From an uncultured Verrucomicrobiota bacterium (lineage in GTDB: Bacteria; Verrucomicrobiota; Verrucomicrobiia; Limisphaerales; CAIQOK01): 64,000 bases of DNA. Both the position numbers and the translations under genes were made by a program. Shown here one piece after another: positions 41,378-57,035 of this stretch (positions are counted from its first letter, which is position 1; every line of letters begins with the position of its first letter). The notes beneath the pieces were generated by a model, which searched no databases, had not been told where the DNA came from, and was given only the letters and a program-made list of their open reading frames with translations. Location: the NCBI GenBank assembly GCA_903873415.1, contig CAIQOK010000067.1, positions 13,967-77,966 on the forward strand, written 5' to 3'.

Positions 41378-44062
41378 TTACGGTTTGAAATTCAACGCAT
41401 CCGGCTTGCCCGCAGCGCTGATGTAGGCCAGCAGATCAAGGATCTCGTCCTCCGTGAAGTTGTTCACCAGGCCGTTGGGCATGGGCGAAAGTTTGGAGGC
41501 AGTCCGGCTCGCAATGTCGGCCAGACGGACTTCTTCAAGCGTCTCGGCTGAGAGAGGATTGGGCATGAGAACCAGCCGCTGGGCATTCACATCGATAATG
41601 CGGCCAGAGAGGCTTTCCCCGTCTTTCTTCACAATGTTATAGGTCAGGAATTGATCGGAAACGACCTTGGAAGGCTCGATGATCGACTCGAGAATGTCGT
41701 GGAGCGAATACTTGCTGCCGGCGCCGGCCAGCTCGGGCCCGACCGCTCCGCCGTGATTTCCCATGCGGTGGCATACGATGCACTGGGCATCGTTGAAAGC
41801 GGATTTGCCGCTTTCGAAATTGCGGCCGCTCTTGGCTTTCTCGAGCAGCGGGGCCAAATCAGCCACCGTCCAAGCCTTGACAAATTTGTGATCGCGCACC
41901 TGTTTCCAAGCCGGCTCACCAATGTGCTCGTCCAGAAGCGGCTTCAGCCCCACCAGTTCCGCCGGGCTGAGCGTGTCCATGGCATCCTTGCGGATGTTGA
42001 TGATGTATTTGCCATAGCTGGCTCCGTCCGCATAGTCGTGGTCGGCGTCCTTAAACCACTGCAGCAATTGGGCCGGATGCTGCGAGTGAAGGGAATCCTG
42101 TTTGCGGAACTGGGTGAACCAGGCGAAATATTTGCTGCGTTGGTCCATCGTCCAGCCGGTCTTCAGGTTGCGGAGATGATAAATGTAATAAGTCTGCTCC
42201 TCGAGCGTGGTCGCTTTGGAAACCAGCTCCAAGGTCTTGCCGATGACGCCGGGTGCCTCCAGGAAAATGAGAACCTGAGCCAGCTCGCGATTGACCCGGT
42301 CGCTGGCAGTGGGATAGAGGGCATTCCATTTTTGAACCGAGGCCGCAATGGTGGACTGATCCGGGCGGCCCTGACGGATGAAACTCAAGTGCAGCACCCG
42401 CAGTTTTGCCAGTTGCAGATCCTCGGGCAGTGTTTTGAGGGAGAATTTACGGAGAGATTCCAACAGGTCCTTCTGTGTTTCCTTCCCGCCGCAACGGGCC
42501 AAGGCAAGCAGGGCCGTCAAACCACCTCGGGGATCGGCTTCGGCCAGCGCGCGATCTTTCCACGAGTCGACGGGCTGGGTTTCAATGGCAACCCTGGCCG
42601 CATTGCGTAGAAACGGATCTTCACTGCGCAAACTCGGCCAGACAAAGTCCACAGCCTTGGGATCGGCTTTCATCTGGAAAGCCTCCAGCTTGTGACGCAA
42701 GTCGCGGGCCGCTGACGCGTTCCGGTCCGCCTTGGGAACGACATTCAAGGCGCTGCGCAAGGCCCGGTCACCGGTGAAGCTCACCCGATACAGGCCCGAC
42801 TGGGTGCCGCGGCCGCCGGTGATGAAATACATGGCCCCGTCGCGGCCGAACTCCATATCCGTCAGATTGAGCGGCTTGCCTTTGACAAAGAGCTCGTAAT
42901 CCGCCGAGTAGCTGGAACCCTGCTCCTTCAGGTTGACGGCGTAAAGACGGCCATAGGACCAGTCCATTACATACAGGGCCTGCTGGTATTTCTTGGGGAA
43001 CTTGCTCTTGGTGCCAAACTTCACCCCTGTGGGACAGCCGATACCGGTGTTCACGGCGGGAGGCAGACTGTCCGCATAATAGTCCGGCCATTTTCCAGCC
43101 CCGCTGCGCCAGCCATAGTCGCCGCCGGGGATCGCATGAATCACGCGGATCGGACGATACCAAGGCAAACCCCAGTCCCACTCCATGTCACTGTCGTAGG
43201 TGAACATTTCCCCGCTGGAACTGAACGCGAAATCATAGGAATTGCGGAAGCCCGCCAGAACCAATTCCCAGTTTTTTCCTTCCGCATCCGTCCTCAAAAT
43301 ATGCCCTCCGGGAGCTAGAATCCCCGCGGCATGACCGTTGGCGTCCCATTGCCTCGGCAGCAGGAGGTCTTCCTGATAATTCTTGTGGGGGGAGTTGGGC
43401 GAAACACCCTCAGGCAACTTCGTATGGTTACCGTTCATCACATAAATCATCCCGTCCGGCCCCTCGACAACGGCATGATAACCATGCTCGCCCTCGCCAC
43501 CGATACGTTTTAAAAAGTGCACTTCATTGGTGTCGAACTGGTCGTTGCGGTTCGAGTCGATCAACCGGTAGAGTCCGGTGCCTTCGGGACCGTGGGCATT
43601 GGCATACAAACTGTCATGGGCCCAGCACAACCCCATTGCCTGATGAATCCCGGCGGCAATCGGCTCCACCAGCGCCACCTGTCCCTTTTTGTCCAAAGTC
43701 AGGCGCAGCATCGGCCGGTCATCCTGTTGCGGAGAGATAATCAGCCGGCCTTTGGGATCAACCGCCATGCAAATCCACGACCCCTCCCCAGCGTCGGCTG
43801 AGCGGAGCAATTCCACCTTGAATCCCGGCAGGGTGGTCAGGGATTCCGCGGCGGTGGCCAACTGCCCATCCACCGGTGGGCGGGCCTTGGCCTTCTTTTG
43901 CGCATTGGGGGCCGCCGTAGACCCAACCACAGCCAGCGTCAGAACGCCGCAAACAAGGATCTGCAGTGATTTTCTGGCAACGACAACGCGTCGTGTCAGG
44001 TCAAAAGACTGTTTGGAGTTTCGCATGAGAAGAGATTCTAAATTGGGAATTTTATATTTCAA
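41378..44062 (-). CDS. Secreted 'membrane-bound dehydrogenase' beta-propeller + HEAT-like repeats + c-type haem-binding domain protein (Pirellula/Verrucomicrobium type)
   Basis: Signal or anchor segment (ILVCGVLTLAVVGSTAA). Propeller-type region (GSWICMAVDPKGRLIISPQ...), a helical repeat region, and C-terminal CIVCHRMGNHGGAVGPEL (CxxCH). Alternative start at ATG 44026. Confidence 0.85.
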   Translation of the reverse strand: MKYKIPNLESLLMRNSKQSFDLTRRVVVARKSLQILVCGVLTLAVVGSTAAPNAQKKAKARPPVDGQLATAAESLTTLPGFKVELLRSADAGEGSWICMAVDPKGRLIISPQQDDRPMLRLTLDKKGQVALVEPIAAGIHQAMGLCWAHDSLYANAHGPEGTGLYRLIDSNRNDQFDTNEVHFLKRIGGEGEHGYHAVVEGPDGMIYVMNGNHTKLPEGVSPNSPHKNYQEDLLLPRQWDANGHAAGILAPGGHILRTDAEGKNWELVLAGFRNSYDFAFSSSGEMFTYDSDMEWDWGLPWYRPIRVIHAIPGGDYGWRSGAGKWPDYYADSLPPAVNTGIGCPTGVKFGTKSKFPKKYQQALYVMDWSYGRLYAVNLKEQGSSYSADYELFVKGKPLNLTDMEFGRDGAMYFITGGRGTQSGLYRVSFTGDRALRSALNVVPKADRNASAARDLRHKLEAFQMKADPKAVDFVWPSLRSEDPFLRNAARVAIETQPVDSWKDRALAEADPRGGLTALLALARCGGKETQKDLLESLRKFSLKTLPEDLQLAKLRVLHLSFIRQGRPDQSTIAASVQKWNALYPTASDRVNRELAQVLIFLEAPGVIGKTLELVSKATTLEEQTYYIYHLRNLKTGWTMDQRSKYFAWFTQFRKQDSLHSQHPAQLLQWFKDADHDYADGASYGKYIINIRKDAMDTLSPAELVGLKPLLDEHIGEPAWKQVRDHKFVKAWTVADLAPLLEKAKSGRNFESGKSAFNDAQCIVCHRMGNHGGAVGPELAGAGSKYSLHDILESIIEPSKVVSDQFLTYNIVKKDGESLSGRIIDVNAQRLVLMPNPLSAETLEEVRLADIASRTASKLSPMPNGLVNNFTEDEILDLLAYISAAGKPDALNFKP

Positions 44063-44245: not shown

Positions 44246-45256
44246 TTACTTTGACTCAAGAGGAACAACGGCCGGACGCAAGGCAGGTTTGTCGGAGGGC
44301 AGATCTGCGCTCGAGGGTGCAGGAAGGGTCACTTTGCCAGTGGCGGCCCACTCCGCGCCACGAGCCAGCGTTACCTGGAATCCAAGACCGTTCATCGCCT
44401 GCGGACTGTGGCCCAGTGCTGTGTGGAAAACACGTCCCTTTCCGAAACGGATTGCCATGAGCAAAGGTTCATTCTCGCGCGTCTGCGGGGAGAAGGCTGT
44501 GGCCAGAACGCTTAGATTTTCCGCCGGACCGCGCAGCCTGGCATACAACTCGTCCCCGGGATGGATCCACTTGTCAGGCAAACCACTGAGAATTGGATGC
44601 GTCGGATTTCGCGCCTCCAGCAGAATGGGGTCCTGAGATCCATGCGTCCCACCTGCACCGGGCGAATTGTCGCGAATCAGTTTGCCCTCACGCCACCGGA
44701 GCATGGGACCGGATTTCTCATTGCGCCCGCCCCAACCGCCGACCCCGATCATCTGGTTGTATTCGGGCCAATCAGGAAATGAATTGTCGGCGGCATGCAC
44801 CGAGACGAAGCCGCCGCCATCGCGGATAAACCTGACGAAAGCTTCGCGAACCTGGGTGGGCCAGGCCTCGCCGTTGTAGTTGCCAACGACCACGTCGCAA
44901 TTGTCAAACGCGGGCCGCCACTGTTTCCAAGTTTCCCCGCTGGTTTTTTGAAAACCAGCCAGGTCGCTCTTCCATTTGGCGAGGGACTGGGCATAGGCCG
45001 CCTGTTGATCCGGAGTGGGCGTCCCCTTGGGCAAACGAGGCTCGCGGGGTGCCGAAGGCGGCGTGGTAAACACCGTCACCTTGAAACGCCCGGACTCCTC
45101 CAGAATCCATTTGAGCACCGGAGTGGTGTGCTTCCAGTCATGGTTGTTCTGGCCGTCGATGATGAGAGCCCGCAAGGGCTGCGACGCCTGGGCATTCAGG
45201 CAGACAGGCGACAGGACCGCGAGGGCGAGAATGCATTTCAACGCTTTGATTTTCAT
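44246..45256 (-). CDS. Secreted ThuA-like protein
   Basis: Signal peptide (ILALAVLSPVCLNAQA), LRALIIDGQNNHDWKHTTP, GGGFVSVHAADNSF, GRVFHTALGHS. Confidence 0.85.
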   Translation of the reverse strand: MKIKALKCILALAVLSPVCLNAQASQPLRALIIDGQNNHDWKHTTPVLKWILEESGRFKVTVFTTPPSAPREPRLPKGTPTPDQQAAYAQSLAKWKSDLAGFQKTSGETWKQWRPAFDNCDVVVGNYNGEAWPTQVREAFVRFIRDGGGFVSVHAADNSFPDWPEYNQMIGVGGWGGRNEKSGPMLRWREGKLIRDNSPGAGGTHGSQDPILLEARNPTHPILSGLPDKWIHPGDELYARLRGPAENLSVLATAFSPQTRENEPLLMAIRFGKGRVFHTALGHSPQAMNGLGFQVTLARGAEWAATGKVTLPAPSSADLPSDKPALRPAVVPLESK

Positions 45257-51343: not shown

Positions 51344-54300
51344 TCACTCCTTATCCAAACAATTCCGGATGGTGGAGGCCAGTTCGGAGATTTGATAGGG
51401 TTTGGGGATAAAGTTGACGCCCCGGTGCAGCGGAAAATCCGCTCCGGCAACCTCGGCGCTGTAACCGCTGGAATAGATGACTTTCAAGTTTGGCTCCTGG
51501 CTCTGGAGATTGGCAGCCAGCTCCCGGCCGTTCATTCCATCGGGCAATACCATGTCCGTGAGAAGAAGCCGGATAGCTGCCCGGTTCTGGCTCCAAAGCT
51601 GCAGGGCACTGCTCCCGTTCGCAGCCTCGATAATGCGATATCCAAGAAAACTCAGGGTGCTCCGGACCACCAGCCGCAAGCTGGAATCATCCTCAACCAG
51701 TAGGATGGTCTCACTCCCTCCGCGCATCGGCGGACTGGGCTGCAAAGCGAATTGGGAGGGGACCGGGTGGGTGAGCAGAGGAAGGTAGATTCGAAACTGG
51801 CTACCGCAGCCCGGAGTGCTGGAAACATCAATCCAGCCCTGGTGCTGCTGGATAATGCCGAAGACCGTGGCCAGTCCCAAGCCGGTGCCTTTGCCTACAT
51901 CCTTGGTGGTAAAAAACGGCTCGAATATCCGGGGCAGCACTTCGGGATCAATCCCGCATCCGCTATCGCTCACCGTCAGACAGGCAAATGGACCGGAGCG
52001 GCTCAGGGTCGATTGAGCCTCCGCCGCCGGGGGGAACTCCACGCGCGTGGTGGTGATGGTCAATTGCCCCCCTTTAGGCATGGCATCGCGGGCATTCAAG
52101 GTCAGATTCATCAGCACCTGGTCTAGCATCCCTGAATCCGCATGAACAAACAGGGGCTGGGAATGGCATTGAGTAACCATCTGAACATTCTCGCCCAGCA
52201 TCCGGTGAAGCATCTTGGTGATATGAGCGACAATCCCGTTCAAATCCAAGTCGCGCAACTGGAGGTTTTGCCGGCGGCTGAAGGTGAGCAGCTGCTGGGT
52301 GAGATTGGCGGCCCGTTGCGCGGCCCGTTCAATCTCGGCGGCAAGCTCCATCTGCGCGGGAGGCAGGCCGCAGCTGGATAGCAGCAGGCCGGCCTGAAGC
52401 TGAATCACGGCCAGGATGTTGTTGAAGTCATGGGCCACGCCCCCGGCCAGTTGCCCCACAACCTCCATTTTCTGGGACTGACGAAATTGCTCCTCCAGCT
52501 TGAGGCGCTCGGTCACGTCCTCCGCCGTGCCCACGATTCGCTGCAATTCCCCGGCCTCGTTGCGAACCGGAAATGCGCGGTCATGAATCCAGAGCAGCTC
52601 ACCATCGGGCCGGATAATCCGGTAGGTTTCATCGTAGCTCCCGTCGGCCTGCTTGGTCTCGGCGGCCCGCCGCACAAACTCCCTATCCTCCGGATGCACC
52701 GCCTCCAGCCACGAGCGGGGGGCCGCATAAAGGCTGGCACACGATCGCCCCCAAATGGCTTCAAAAGCAGGGCTGATGTAGAGCATTCGTTGCTTGCCGG
52801 GATCGGTGACCCAGAACACCTCGCGAATACTCTCGGCCAGTTCACGGAAGCGCGCCTCGCTTTGGCGCAAGACCTCCTCGGCCTGCTTCCGGGCGGTGAT
52901 ATCACGCACGATTATCGACACGCCAATCATGCAGCCAGCGGAGTCTTTGATGGAGGAGATCGTCGCCGCCACGTTAATGCAAGTCCCGTCCTTTCGGATC
53001 CGGAGGGTTTCAAACTGGCTGATCCGTTCGCCGGCCTGAATCCGCCGGATAATTTCATCCTCCTCACCGATGCGATCGGGGGGAAAGATTCCCACAAGGG
53101 ACCTGCCGAGCATCTCCTGCTCCGAGTATCCAAAGACCCGCTGGGCCGCGGCATTCCAGCTGGTCACCAATCCCTGGGGCGTCTTGCTGATGATGGCGTC
53201 TTCCGATGAATCGATCAGGGCGCAAGAGCGGGTCAACTCCAGTTCCGTCTGCTTGCGCCCGGTGATATCCCGGATGATTCCGACATAGTGAGTGACCTGG
53301 CCATCCTTATCCCGCAGCGGGGCGATCATCAGGTCATTCCAAAACGGGGTTCCGCTCTTGTGGTAATTGAGGATTTCACCGGAAAAGATCTGCTCGCTCT
53401 TGAAGGCCGCACGTATCCTGGCCACAAGCTGTGGATCCGTGCCGGGCCCCTGAAGAAAATCACAATTCCGACCAATCGCATCCTCCTCAAAATAGCCCGT
53501 GATGGCGGTGAAGGCGCTATTGACCGAAATGATCTTCCGGTCGGCGCCTGCGATCACCACTCCTTGGGAGATGGCTTTAAGGGCGCTGTCGCTGAGCCTC
53601 AGGGCCTGCTCCGCCTGCTTGCGCTCGGTCAGATCCATGTTGGCCCCCACCACGCGGACCGCCCGGCCCTCAGGATCCCGAACCACCCAACCCCGTGCCA
53701 GGATGGGCACATAATGGCCGGCGCGGTGACGCATCCGGGCCTCAAACTCATAGTTGCAACCCTGCCCGGCCAGGACCGAGGATACATACTGCTCAATCCG
53801 CACCGCATCTTCCGGATGGAGAAGCTCCAGCCACAACTGGGGGCCTGCCTTCAGTGCATAGGGTTCGTAGCCAAGCATCTGAAACCAGCGTGCTGAATAA
53901 TAAGCTTCGTTCCGGATCAAATCCCGGTCCCACACCCCGTCGCGCGAACCTTCAAGCACCAGGCGCAGCCGCTCCTCGGACTGCTGCAGTTTTAATTCCG
54001 TCTGGTGTTTGTAAAAGGCCATCTCCAGCACGGTGCGCAGCTCCCGTTCGGAAAAGGGCTTGATGATGTAGCCAAAAGGCTTGGCCAGCTTGGCCAGGGC
54101 CAGCGTGTCATCGTTGGCAAACGCCGTCAGAAAAATGACCGGCAGGGAAAACCGCTCCCGGATAATCTGAGCGGCGGTGATGCCGTTCATCGGGCCCGCC
54201 AGCTGAATGTCCATTAAGACCAGATCGGGCTTGAGTTCCGCCACAAGGTCCAGAGCCTTTTCCCCTTGAGTGGCATGCCCGGCCACTGCGTAATCCAGAT

Positions 54301-54385
54301 CGATCAACTGCATCTGAACGTCGCGGGCGACAACGACCTCATCCTCCACGATCAGGATCCTGAGTTTATGAGCTGGGGGGGTCAT
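51344..54385 (-). CDS. Hybrid sensor kinase: REC - 4 PAS (second one LOV-like) - HisKA - HATPase_c - REC
   Basis: ATG 54385 (MTPPAHKLRILIVEDE). N-terminal receiver (DLVLMDIQL, IIKPF). PAS/PAC segments. H-box VAHDFNNIL, N-box LNARDAM, G-boxes DSGCGI and GTGLGL. C-terminal receiver (ILLVEDD, LLLTDMVLPDGMNG). Confidence 0.9.
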   Translation of the reverse strand: MTPPAHKLRILIVEDEVVVARDVQMQLIDLDYAVAGHATQGEKALDLVAELKPDLVLMDIQLAGPMNGITAAQIIRERFSLPVIFLTAFANDDTLALAKLAKPFGYIIKPFSERELRTVLEMAFYKHQTELKLQQSEERLRLVLEGSRDGVWDRDLIRNEAYYSARWFQMLGYEPYALKAGPQLWLELLHPEDAVRIEQYVSSVLAGQGCNYEFEARMRHRAGHYVPILARGWVVRDPEGRAVRVVGANMDLTERKQAEQALRLSDSALKAISQGVVIAGADRKIISVNSAFTAITGYFEEDAIGRNCDFLQGPGTDPQLVARIRAAFKSEQIFSGEILNYHKSGTPFWNDLMIAPLRDKDGQVTHYVGIIRDITGRKQTELELTRSCALIDSSEDAIISKTPQGLVTSWNAAAQRVFGYSEQEMLGRSLVGIFPPDRIGEEDEIIRRIQAGERISQFETLRIRKDGTCINVAATISSIKDSAGCMIGVSIIVRDITARKQAEEVLRQSEARFRELAESIREVFWVTDPGKQRMLYISPAFEAIWGRSCASLYAAPRSWLEAVHPEDREFVRRAAETKQADGSYDETYRIIRPDGELLWIHDRAFPVRNEAGELQRIVGTAEDVTERLKLEEQFRQSQKMEVVGQLAGGVAHDFNNILAVIQLQAGLLLSSCGLPPAQMELAAEIERAAQRAANLTQQLLTFSRRQNLQLRDLDLNGIVAHITKMLHRMLGENVQMVTQCHSQPLFVHADSGMLDQVLMNLTLNARDAMPKGGQLTITTTRVEFPPAAEAQSTLSRSGPFACLTVSDSGCGIDPEVLPRIFEPFFTTKDVGKGTGLGLATVFGIIQQHQGWIDVSSTPGCGSQFRIYLPLLTHPVPSQFALQPSPPMRGGSETILLVEDDSSLRLVVRSTLSFLGYRIIEAANGSSALQLWSQNRAAIRLLLTDMVLPDGMNGRELAANLQSQEPNLKVIYSSGYSAEVAGADFPLHRGVNFIPKPYQISELASTIRNCLDKE
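53261..53587 (-). other. LOV-like PAS domain inside the hybrid kinase (Cys codon TGT at 53462..53464)
   Basis: QGVVIAGADRKIISVNSAFTAITGYFEEDAIGRNCDFLQGPGTDPQLVARIRAAF...ILNYHKSGTPFWNDLMIAPLRDKDGQVTHYVGIIRDITGRK is colinear with remembered YtvA and phototropin LOV sequences (G.NCRFLQG, NY.K.G..FWN, DIT). Confidence 0.65.
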
Positions 54386-54473
54386 AACAAAAAAGGAGGG
54401 GACCGCCGAAACGGAGCCGGAGCCGCTCCCGGTGCGGATGTCGAAAAACCGGATAATCCAGGGTGTGTCAGGC

Positions 54474-57035
54474 TCATTTGGCGGGGGTGGCCGGCAGATT
54501 CGCGGCCAGCGGGGTGAAGGTGACACTAAAGGAGGCCGCCGGCCTGGCAATCAGTTCCAGCCGGCCGCCAAGTTGCATCGTCAAATCGGAAACCAACTGC
54601 AGGCCCAGAGTCTGGGCCCGCGTGGGATCAAAGTCTGGCGGCAACCCCACGCCACTATCGCTAACCAGCAGGCGGAATTCCGGCCCGCCATCCACCGGCT
54701 GGAGCTCAACCCGAATTACGCCACTCTGCTTGTCAGGGAAGCCGTGTTTGAGCGCATTGGAGATGAGCTCATTGACCAGAAGGCCGCAGGGCAATGCTTG
54801 ATCCATCACCACGTGCACCGAAGCAAGGTTCAGCTCGAGGGAGACCTGACTCGGCCATACCACCAAGGAACGGAAGCAATGGGTGCTGAGCTGCTTGAGG
54901 TATTTTCCCAGATCCACCGCTGCCAGATTTTCGGACCGGTAGAGCGATTCGTGCAGAAGCGCCATGGACCGGATGCGGCCGTGCATGTCCCCCAACACCG
55001 TCTTGGTATCCGGATCCGGACTGCGGCCGGTTTCCAGACGGAGCAGGCTGTTGATAATCTGAAGGTTGTTTTTGACCCGGTGATGCACCTCCTTGAGCAA
55101 TGCGTCCTTCTCCAGAAGGGAAAACTGCAGAGCCTGCTCGGCCTGCTCACGAGCAAAAAGCTCCTGGCGCAGAAGCACGTTGGTCTCCACCAGATTCTCC
55201 CGGGCCTGCGAGAGCCCCTCCCGCGCGCCATCCAGCCCGACGGCTGCCCTTGCAATCTCATCTTGGAGACGGTTGAAATTCAGAGCCATGTCCCCCACCT
55301 CATCGCGGGAGAAGACCTTGACGGGGAGAATCTGGAAACGGGTTTGCGCGGCCTTCAGGTCGCCCGCTGCCAGGGCGCGCATGGCCTTGGTGAACTCCGA
55401 CAGGGTGCCGCCCACCAAGCTGTTGGCCGCCTTGGACACCTCCACCGCCGAGTGGGCTATCATCCCTGGCAGTATCAATCCCACCCCGATAGTGAGCAGG
55501 GCTACGATGACGAAAATGTCTTCCAGCAATACGATGAGGGCGTTGTTCTGGGTGGGGACATGGCTAACGGCGATAAGATAACCACCTGCGTCGAGCAAGA
55601 GCACAAGCAGCATGGCCCCGGTGAGTTTCAGATGGAGAGTGCGGGCCAAGCCAGACAGGCCTTGCTTGCGACGATCCGAGAATTTCCGCCAAGCATACAG
55701 CGCCGAACCGGAATAGGCAAAGGCTATGCCGATCAGCACGGTGGGCAGTCCGAACTGCTCAAACCCCAACACCACCGTCAGCCCCCAGGCCGCGGCGGCG
55801 AAAAGTCCCAGCGCAATGGTTCCGCGCGGGGCGCGGTAGGGGCGCGGCAGATCCGGCTCATTGTGCCGCAACAACCACACCGCCACATTGGGCATGGCAA
55901 TGCCAATCAAATAGGTCAGATTGGCCGCGGCGATCAGCCAGACCGGATCCCCGATAAACAGGAAGCCAATGGACATAGAGGCGGTCAGGAGGGTTGCAAA
56001 CCAAGGGGCATCGGCGCGGTTGCGCAAGGCCAGGGATTCCGGCAGGAGACCGTCCTCGGCGAGCTGCGCCAGAACGCGGGATGCGCCCGCCAAGGGGGCC
56101 AGCGTCCCGTGCAGCATGTTAAAGGTCATAAACCAAATGGCAGCCCCCTTGGCAAAAGCCCCAAACAGCGGCGCAAAGGTGGGCCCCAATTCCATGGCCA
56201 GATCCTTGCCCATCGGCTCCGCCCCGATGGTGCCCAGCCAGACCACGGGCAGGATGATGAAGTAAAGCCCGGCCAGTGCGGCGCTGGCAAAAACCGCGCG
56301 GGGCACGTTTCGGTTGGGATCAATCGTCTCACCCACATGCGAGGTGGCCTGCTCGAAAGCGGGGGCGGCAAATCCCACCAGATAGAGCCCGGCCATCACG
56401 CTGGTCAACTGCCCGAACCAGCCCGGAAACGGCACCGTCAAATGAAAGTTCAGCGCCTGATGCCAGTCCACTTTGCCGCTGACAACAGGGATCAATGCGG
56501 AGAGAAAAGCCAAGATTCCCGAGGCGGTTGCCACGGGCATGGCCAAACGCATGACCCATTTGACCCCGCACAAATTCACAAAGGTGAACAAAAGCACAAT
56601 GCACGTTGCCAGCAGCGGCACGGGACACCCGGGGAAATACCATTGATGCAGGGCAGAAGCAGAAAGCAGGGCGGTCAAGCCGCAGGTCGGCACCCACCCC
56701 CACCAGTAACATACTCCGGTGAGATTTGCCAGAACGGGACTGTAAGGACGAAACGCCTCTGCGCAAGTGGCCGAGATGCCCCCGACGCGATTGGGATACA
56801 TGAGAACCAATTCAAGCCATCCGGGCGTGGCGGCCCAACTCAGGAGTAATCCCACAATCAACAGGGGCACCGCCGCGCTGCCCTGACCAGGAATGGCCCC
56901 CTGACCAATGAATAAAGCACCCAGAAGAAAGAGGCTTTGGTTGATCCCGCCCATGGCCACGGCCGTGGTGCCGAACCAACCCACCGTGCGAGGATGCAGG
57001 AGCGACCCGCCGGTTACGAATGAGCTTTTATTCAT
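54474..57035 (-). CDS. Fusion of an APC-superfamily amino-acid-permease-like domain with a HAMP + HisKA_2-type histidine kinase
   Basis: About 450 aa of polytopic permease-like sequence (GINQSLFLLGALFIG..., WGWVPTCG...). Two further TM segments follow, then a HAMP-like segment (FSRDEVGDMALNFNRLQDEI), a coiled coil and H-box EVHHRVKNNLQII. ATPase motifs are ELISNALKHGFP, DSGVGLP and LGLQLV. Confidence 0.85.
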   Translation of the reverse strand: MNKSSFVTGGSLLHPRTVGWFGTTAVAMGGINQSLFLLGALFIGQGAIPGQGSAAVPLLIVGLLLSWAATPGWLELVLMYPNRVGGISATCAEAFRPYSPVLANLTGVCYWWGWVPTCGLTALLSASALHQWYFPGCPVPLLATCIVLLFTFVNLCGVKWVMRLAMPVATASGILAFLSALIPVVSGKVDWHQALNFHLTVPFPGWFGQLTSVMAGLYLVGFAAPAFEQATSHVGETIDPNRNVPRAVFASAALAGLYFIILPVVWLGTIGAEPMGKDLAMELGPTFAPLFGAFAKGAAIWFMTFNMLHGTLAPLAGASRVLAQLAEDGLLPESLALRNRADAPWFATLLTASMSIGFLFIGDPVWLIAAANLTYLIGIAMPNVAVWLLRHNEPDLPRPYRAPRGTIALGLFAAAAWGLTVVLGFEQFGLPTVLIGIAFAYSGSALYAWRKFSDRRKQGLSGLARTLHLKLTGAMLLVLLLDAGGYLIAVSHVPTQNNALIVLLEDIFVIVALLTIGVGLILPGMIAHSAVEVSKAANSLVGGTLSEFTKAMRALAAGDLKAAQTRFQILPVKVFSRDEVGDMALNFNRLQDEIARAAVGLDGAREGLSQARENLVETNVLLRQELFAREQAEQALQFSLLEKDALLKEVHHRVKNNLQIINSLLRLETGRSPDPDTKTVLGDMHGRIRSMALLHESLYRSENLAAVDLGKYLKQLSTHCFRSLVVWPSQVSLELNLASVHVVMDQALPCGLLVNELISNALKHGFPDKQSGVIRVELQPVDGGPEFRLLVSDSGVGLPPDFDPTRAQTLGLQLVSDLTMQLGGRLELIARPAASFSVTFTPLAANLPATPAK

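Follow-up and report, generated by a model that had tools for sequence, protein, structure and literature searches.

Can a LOV-like PAS domain that keeps its photoactive cysteine still sense light after both the arginine beside that cysteine and the glutamine of the last beta strand have been replaced? The question is raised by a hybrid histidine kinase gene in contig CAIQOK010000067.1 of an uncultured Verrucomicrobiota bacterium, from which a stretch of 64,000 nucleotides (the window) was analyzed. The LOV-type domain is the second of four PAS domains in this kinase. Its key residues read GRNCDFLQG…NYHKSG..FWN…YVGIIRDIT, with aspartate at the arginine site and isoleucine at the glutamine site. 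The domain has a LOV-type PAS fold and is closest to bona fide LOV domains. The chances are about even that it is a functional flavin-binding, Cys-adduct LOV photosensor of the natural Gln-deficient class, with a weakened phosphate clamp, feeding a multi-input hybrid kinase. Positions below are those of the window, and amino acids are numbered from the TTG start of the longer mechanical open reading frame (ORF), as in the first-pass annotation of this DNA, which referred to the domain as aa 320-435.

The residues of the domain and its assignment to the kinase are as first described. Window positions 53261-53587 translate on the minus strand to SALKAISQGVVIAGADRKIISVNSAFTAITGYFEEDAIGRNCDFLQGPGTDPQLVARIRAAFKSEQIFSGEILNYHKSGTPFWNDLMIAPLRDKDGQVTHYVGIIRDIT (aa 322-430), and the plus strand gives an unrelated reading. 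This translation and the Pfam architecture bear out the first-pass annotation, which had quoted the peptide as the second PAS domain of a hybrid kinase. HMMER and MAFFT alignments agree with each of its residue calls: the Cys, the Gln of the FLQ motif, a downstream Arg and both Asn are present, the Arg beside the Cys is Asp, and the Gln of the last strand is Ile. Gln367, Arg380, Asn395 and Asn405 are the equivalents of Q454, R467, N482 and N492 of AsLOV2, and all four are retained. The arginine that follows the cysteine in LOV domains and contacts the phosphate of flavin mononucleotide (FMN; R451 in AsLOV2) is replaced by Asp364, and the active-site glutamine of the last strand (Q513) by Ile426. 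Alignment to LOV domains had been proposed as a check, and it places Cys363 on the adduct position. A misalignment of the cysteine to the adduct site was considered and rejected, since three independent alignments agree.

Comparison with known structures identifies the domain as a member of the LOV group. A phmmer search with aa 308-440 against all PDB chains gave the LOV domain of Chloroflexus aggregans Cagg_3753 as the best match (6rhg, E=1e-29), followed by MrLOV (9vf7), phototropin LOV1 and LOV2, YtvA, EL222, aureochromes and Brucella LOV-HK. LOV proteins make up nearly all of the best 60 listed matches, including all of the strongest. These similarities far exceed chance. Structure prediction, which was also among the suggested checks, gave the same answer. 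The AlphaFold2 (AF2) model, made from a 26-sequence alignment, shows helices and strands in the order typical of LOV domains, plus flanking helices, with a mean predicted local distance difference test (pLDDT) score of 88.4. The best 50 Foldseek matches of the model in the PDB are all LOV domains, with a root-mean-square deviation (rmsd) of 0.9 Å over 104 columns to CagFbFP and a template modelling (TM) score of 0.85 to MrLOVe. The loop between A-beta and B-beta is three residues shorter than usual; the Chloroflexus LOV domain has the same loop, so this is not an anomaly.

Flavin-binding redox sensors are also found among the relatives of the domain. The NifL model matches aa 333-453 with 119 bits, and MmoS (3ewk) is matched with E=9.5e-20. 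The domain could thus be a flavin PAS of the NifL/MmoS kind that acts mainly as a redox or oxygen sensor, its light sensitivity being incidental, and the host, judged by its glycoside hydrolase and ThuA-type neighbors, is a non-phototrophic heterotroph. The authors who described Gln-less LOV receptors propose redox-active flavoproteins as the ancestors of LOV receptors (PMC9098866). However, the E-values for true LOV domains are lower than that for MmoS by about ten orders of magnitude, and the NifL score lies far under the model cut-off of 242, which places the domain outside that family. In addition, the domain retains the adduct cysteine, which to our knowledge is absent from NifL- and MmoS-type domains. 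A mainly redox-sensing role is improbable.

The loss of the glutamine is a known variation among LOV receptors. The active-site Gln is generally dispensable for LOV signalling, and about 350 natural Gln-deficient receptors have been collected, mostly with Leu or Ile at this site but also with Ser or Thr (Dietler et al. 2022, PMC9098866). The filter used in that work (LOV-deltaQ) asks for at least eight of the nine residues G59, N61, C62, R63, F64, L65, Q66, N94 and N104 (YtvA numbering) and for no Gln at Q123, and a later paper in the same field uses the identical residue list. The domain passes this filter with G, N, C, D, F, L, Q, N and N, or eight of nine, and Ile at the Gln site. Light-dependent output of the natural Gln-deficient class has been shown for one member only, and a Mesorhizobium LOV-deltaQ-GGDEF protein showed blue-light-repressed cyclase behavior in an E. 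coli reporter assay (PMC9098866). As for the missing arginine, the literature indicates that the phosphate contact is not needed for photochemistry and that the arginine cluster influences how well FMN is retained and how quickly recovery proceeds.

The domain belongs to a larger group of Gln-less LOV-like domains. Every PAS stretch recovered by exhaustive representative, full-length and profile searches was re-scored against the query domain, since the representative search ranked proteins by summed multi-PAS scores, and twelve key columns were read. Domains with at least 100 bits, no last-strand Gln and a basic residue at the next position form a Gln-less set of 55, which was compared with a canonical set of 94. 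The Gln is replaced by T, I, M, V, S, A, L or N, followed by the basic residue, and the consensus is SQGV…D..I.S.N.AF…G..C.FLQGP.TD…IR…FSGEILNYRKDG..FWN…THF.G[VI][T/I/M/V/S/A]RDIT.RK. Cys450 (AsLOV2 numbering) is kept in 84% of the Gln-less domains and 99% of the canonical ones. The corresponding values are 82% and 98% for Gln454, 78% and 98% for Arg467, 96% and 100% for Asn482, and 96% and 99% for Asn492, while Arg451 remains in just 49% of the Gln-less domains against 94% of the canonical ones. In a midpoint-rooted neighbor-joining tree, which carries no bootstrap support and took Gln-less members of at least 105 bits, these members form one clade apart from the canonical sequences, and the query lies inside it. 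The ten clade members that were checked are all multi-PAS proteins with HisKA, HisKA_2/HWE kinase, GGDEF, GGDEF-EAL or LuxR-type HTH outputs, which is the usual effector repertoire of bacterial LOV proteins.

The residue combinations within this set point to two states. Gln454 of the FLQ motif is present in 42 of the 46 Cys-bearing members against 3 of the other 9 (Fisher p=5e-4, uncorrected for phylogeny), and the Gln-less sequences therefore split into flavin-competent and decayed states. By its residues the query falls into the flavin-competent state. The residue after the cysteine in the 46 Cys-bearing members is R in 24, A in 6, K in 5, S in 4, Q in 2, and D, N, G, I or H in one each, the single D being the query. 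A scan of 136 positions for a basic residue that might compensate where the Arg is missing gave a weak signal at aa 378 (5 of 17 against 0 of 29, p=0.0045), which is not significant after correction. Two other arrangements were seen in the clade. The 735-aa protein P0140 has three tandem Cys-bearing Gln-less LOV-like domains (residues 312-441, 437-562 and 555-686) with the motifs NCR..NR, NCK..TR and NCK..TR. In P0274 (261-393) and P0035 (126-255) the motif is G-[RQ]-D-Y-C, with the Cys one position C-terminal of the adduct site and the FLQ Gln lost.

With these results the claims of novelty made for the domain can be revised. The first-pass annotation offered two possibilities, a divergent photosensor or a LOV-derived PAS domain that has changed, and this choice was well framed, but the novelty was overrated. 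It singled out the change from Gln to Ile as non-canonical, whereas natural receptors of this kind had been described in 2022. It also listed the replacement of the Arg beside the Cys as non-canonical, and loss of this Arg is common in the clade of the query. Only the specific Asp is unusual. A literature search found no characterized LOV protein from Verrucomicrobia, which agrees with the earlier remark that characterized LOV kinases were not known from the lineage. A 2014 survey nevertheless already counts Verrucomicrobia among the phyla in its histogram of LOV/BLUF species, according to the legend of Fig. 5 (PMC4844311).

The aspartate is not an artifact. The exact or near-exact protein is present on at least eight independent contigs from metagenomes or metagenome-assembled genomes (MAGs), and all of them keep GRNCDFLQG and YVGIIRDIT. 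These strain variants have zero amino acid differences in aa 329-430, compared with 5-8 elsewhere in each full-length variant. The sole polymorphism within aa 305-440 is A313S, which sits in the N-terminal flanking helix. Asp364 is therefore real and fixed. Sequencing error was rejected as its source, the same motif being found in nine further called proteins from independent assemblies.

Aspartate at this position is rare elsewhere. An exact-motif scan for G-x-N-C-D-F-L-Q-G, which covered 185,579 species with a single genome per species, gave 16 stretches, five of which are real LOV-like domains. The remaining 11 are not LOV-like; those that can be read as protein are EAL domains, and most are out-of-frame chance matches. 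The canonical motif GxNCRFLQG was counted at least 120 times. NCD is found in a short LOV protein of Frigoribacterium in which all other residues are canonical and the Gln is kept, in a haloarchaeal REC-LOV-GAF-HTH protein that also keeps the Gln, in a LOV-GGDEF-EAL protein of Halomonas together with Q->L and R467N, and in a PAS-LOV-GAF-PAS-kinase of the Flavobacteriaceae bacterium GF1 together with Q->I. The fifth domain, from Burkholderiales (L165), is considered below. By this motif count, aspartate after the cysteine is rare but independently recurrent in five other lineages, including otherwise intact LOV receptors. EAL-domain proteins that have no relation to PAS or LOV (L166, L168 and L177) also contain G-x-N-C-D-F-[LF]-Q-G, and matches of this kind are a caution for LOV searches based on motifs only.

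The closest orthologues raise the strongest doubt about photochemistry. A full-length search found proteins of the same architecture, about 52% identical and labelled Akkermansiaceae. In the equivalent domain P0019, P0021 and P0022 read NCAFLQ…VTRD, P0020 reads SFGFLH and has R467E, P0025 reads NPGFLW…VIRD, P0081 reads NYRFLQ…VTHD, P0023 reads TCRLLQ and P0024 reads SYRFLH. Thus no member of this kinase lineage has the last-strand Gln, most lack the Arg after the Cys, and several losses of the Cys have occurred. The LOV-like domain is 51-53% identical between the query and these orthologues, which is the level of the whole protein; PAS3 is less conserved, at about 30%. The codon of Asp364 (GAT) is one step from the orthologue codons for Ala (GCT) and Gly (GGT) and two from Arg, which suggests that the arginine was lost before the aspartate arose. 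Other searches did not add orthologues. A word-indexed homologue search with the domain alone yielded no orthologues, only 17 short fragments of canonical LOV domains, and a scan of the species genomes with the full protein gave kinase-core relatives only, with an orthologous LOV-like domain at no locus. The 60% identity of locus L002 in that scan, for example, spans aa 681-1068 only.

Several of these results weigh against a working photosensor. Selection for photochemistry looks relaxed in this kinase lineage because the Cys has been lost several times independently among the closest orthologues of the same architecture (P0020, P0025, P0081 and P0024); the FLQ Gln has gone along with it, and P0020 also has R467E. 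The Asp is unique to the query among 118 tabulated Cys-bearing LOV-like domains. It puts a negative charge at the FMN phosphate clamp, and may be mildly deleterious rather than adaptive. The NCD domain from Burkholderiales is clearly degenerate. The domain might accordingly be a LOV-derived PAS without flavin, serving as a structural or dimerization spacer or as a site for another small ligand, with the Cys a leftover that has not yet been lost. The Asp may then be drift that followed the loss of the Arg, as the neighboring Ala and Gly codons would allow. However, all of the polar residues that contact the flavin ring are intact in the query, as is the Cys, and the wider clade keeps the Cys in 84% of its members, where it travels with Q454. 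The core shows no amino acid polymorphism in the population, and when the predicted fold is superposed on LOV structures with bound flavin the deviation is 0.9 Å. A domain without flavin is the main rival reading, though less likely than a photosensor.

The analysis establishes the fold, the family, the residue states, the clade and the conservation in the population, while flavin binding, the photocycle, the signal path and the effect of the Asp are inferred. A working photosensor would probably operate in the following way. The flavin would most likely be held by the retained ring contacts Q367, N395 and N405, with R380 for the phosphate. Blue light would form an adduct between Cys363 and C4a of the flavin. 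In place of the Gln, a water-mediated relay of the kind proposed for LOV receptors that lack this residue would carry the resulting protonation of N5 to the beta sheet. The signal would next pass along the flanking helices and on through PAS3 and PAS4 before it reaches the HisKA/HATPase core, which would finally send phosphate to the receiver at the C-terminus. Asp364 takes the place of one of the two arginines that clamp the phosphate, and would be expected to lower the affinity for FMN or to produce a preference for non-phosphorylated flavin; the adduct lifetime may change as well. The replacement may even be adaptive, giving a pocket that prefers riboflavin or a derivative, or tuning the adduct lifetime and redox potential. 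Together with the five NCD lineages, the domain would then represent a natural variant in cofactor specificity that signals without the Gln. This last proposal is highly doubtful.

Either outcome would refine current knowledge rather than overturn it. If the domain has a photocycle, it would be a verrucomicrobial addition to the almost untested natural class of Gln-less LOV receptors, and would show that the Arg beside the adduct Cys is dispensable as well. It would also be a natural scaffold for relating phosphate clamping to cofactor choice and adduct lifetime, with some use in optogenetics and in the engineering of flavin-based fluorescent proteins. If it binds no flavin, the orthologue series NCD, NCA, NYR, NPG and SFG would trace how a photoreceptor decays step by step to an ordinary PAS module.

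The gene encodes a complete hybrid sensor histidine kinase with receivers at both ends. The H-box His, HATPase_c and both receiver Asp residues are present by Pfam and direct reading. The mechanical ORF runs from TTG 54550 to 51344 on the minus strand (1068 codons). The true start is probably ATG 54385 (M56) because the gene calls for near-identical proteins of its 90%-identity cluster give a length of 1013 aa, with MTPPAHK at the N-terminus. Other near-identical proteins are called from V68/M68 (1001 aa). The features of the kinase and of its surroundings are collected in Table 1.

Table 1. Features of the hybrid kinase gene, its LOV-type domain and the surrounding region, in window coordinates.
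Feature	Position	Strand	Basis
Hybrid histidine kinase gene, probable start ATG (M56) to stop	51344..54385	-	ORF list; Pfam REC-PAS-PAS_9-PAS-PAS_3-HisKA-HATPase_c-REC
N-terminal receiver, aa 65-175, acceptor Asp in LMDIQL	54026..54358	-	Pfam Response_reg; sequence read
PAS domain 1, aa ~200-310	53621..53953	-	Pfam PAS_3/PAS_11
N-terminal flanking helix (A'alpha-like), aa 305-328, linking PAS1 to LOV core	53567..53638	-	AF2 helix, model residues 3-24
LOV-type PAS domain, aa 329-430	53261..53566	-	Pfam PAS_9; PDB phmmer; AF2; Foldseek
GRNCDFLQG motif, aa 360-368	53447..53473	-	PDB phmmer and MAFFT alignments; sequence read
Cys363 (TGT), adduct position	53462-53464	-	HMMER and MAFFT alignments
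Asp364 (GAT), at phosphate-binding Arg site	53459-53461	-	Alignments; codon read
Arg380, retained; second phosphate-binding Arg (AsLOV2 R467), F-alpha helix	53411..53413	-	Alignments
Asn395 (NYHK) to Asn405 (FWN), flavin-ring H-bonding Asn pair, both retained	53336..53368	-	Alignments
Ile426-Arg427, last beta strand; Ile at active-site Gln, Arg as Gln-less clade signature	53270..53275	-	Alignments
PAS domain 3, aa 444-556	52883..53221	-	Pfam PAS/PAS_4
PAS domain 4, aa 590-676	52523..52783	-	Pfam PAS_3
Kinase core: HisKA aa 699-762 (H-box VAHDFNN) and HATPase_c aa 805-925	51776..52456	-	Pfam; H-box read
C-terminal receiver, aa ~945-1060, acceptor Asp in LLLTDMVL	51371..51718	-	Pfam Response_reg; sequence read
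5' part of mechanical ORF (from TTG 54550), overlapping end of upstream gene	54386-54550	-	
Amino-acid permease fused to HAMP, HisKA_2/HWE and HATPase, directly upstream	54474-57035	-	
DUF7133-HEAT-ThuA protein, 1700 aa	58708-63810	-	
Second ThuA-domain protein	44246-45256	-	
Cytochrome-c-domain protein	41378-44062	-	
Giant ORF, 4079 codons	26376-38615	-	

The gene directly upstream is a transporter-kinase fusion in the same orientation, with a gap of 88 nt to ATG 54385. Its product may act as the partner kinase that donates phosphate to the N-terminal receiver. The two genes are also neighbors in metagenome contig L001 but not in the Akkermansiaceae orthologues. At the loci of these orthologues (L082 8878-10306, L083 3936-5364 and L084 4893-6321) the kinase gene is adjoined at its 3' end by a pair of IS66-family transposase genes, which overlap it according to the gene calls; further transposase genes lie nearby. 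A neighboring UPF0261 gene in the window is up to 80% identical to genes in MAGs of Verrucomicrobia. This similarity and the labels of the orthologues place the host in the Verrucomicrobiota. Sets of ThuA, DUF7133-HEAT and cytochrome-c-domain genes are common in genomes of Planctomycetota and Verrucomicrobiota.

Among known systems, the domain can be compared with redox sensors, with canonical LOV kinases and with Gln-less LOV receptors. The FAD-binding PAS redox sensors NifL and MmoS share with it the PAS fold with a flavin pocket and a detectable similarity in sequence, but this similarity is much weaker than that of LOV domains. The best matches in sequence and structure are the LOV domains of Cagg_3753 (6rhg, the parent of CagFbFP) and of Meiothermus ruber (MrLOV, 9vf7/9vf8), with 46-51% identity in Foldseek and rmsd values of 0.9-1.5 Å. 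Both are hosted by multi-sensor histidine kinases, as is the query, and Cagg_3753 has the same short A-beta/B-beta loop (AGAD..). In contrast to the query, both have the canonical NCRFLQ motif and the last-strand Gln. The kinase of the Flavobacteriaceae bacterium GF1 (AP035880.1, complete genome, L172; PAS-LOV-GAF-PAS-HisKA-HATPase) is also a multi-sensor histidine kinase, and it combines GKNCDFLQG with Q->I (IAIIND) and keeps R467, N482 and N492. It differs in coming from another phylum, with 42% identity to the query, and in having Asn rather than Arg after the Ile, and it may lie outside the clade of the query. Should the strain be available, its kinase would be convenient for comparison. 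Unlike the LOV-deltaQ receptors (PMC9098866), for example the Mesorhizobium loti LOV-deltaQ-GGDEF-EAL protein (WP_140774521.1), the query also lacks the Arg after the Cys and belongs to a hybrid kinase that has four PAS domains, of which it is the second, and a receiver at each terminus. It resembles these receptors in having eight of the nine residues, including the adduct Cys, in the fusion to a bacterial signalling effector, and in the replacement of the Gln by a hydrophobic residue, which is Ile in the query and predominantly Leu or Ile among the known receptors.

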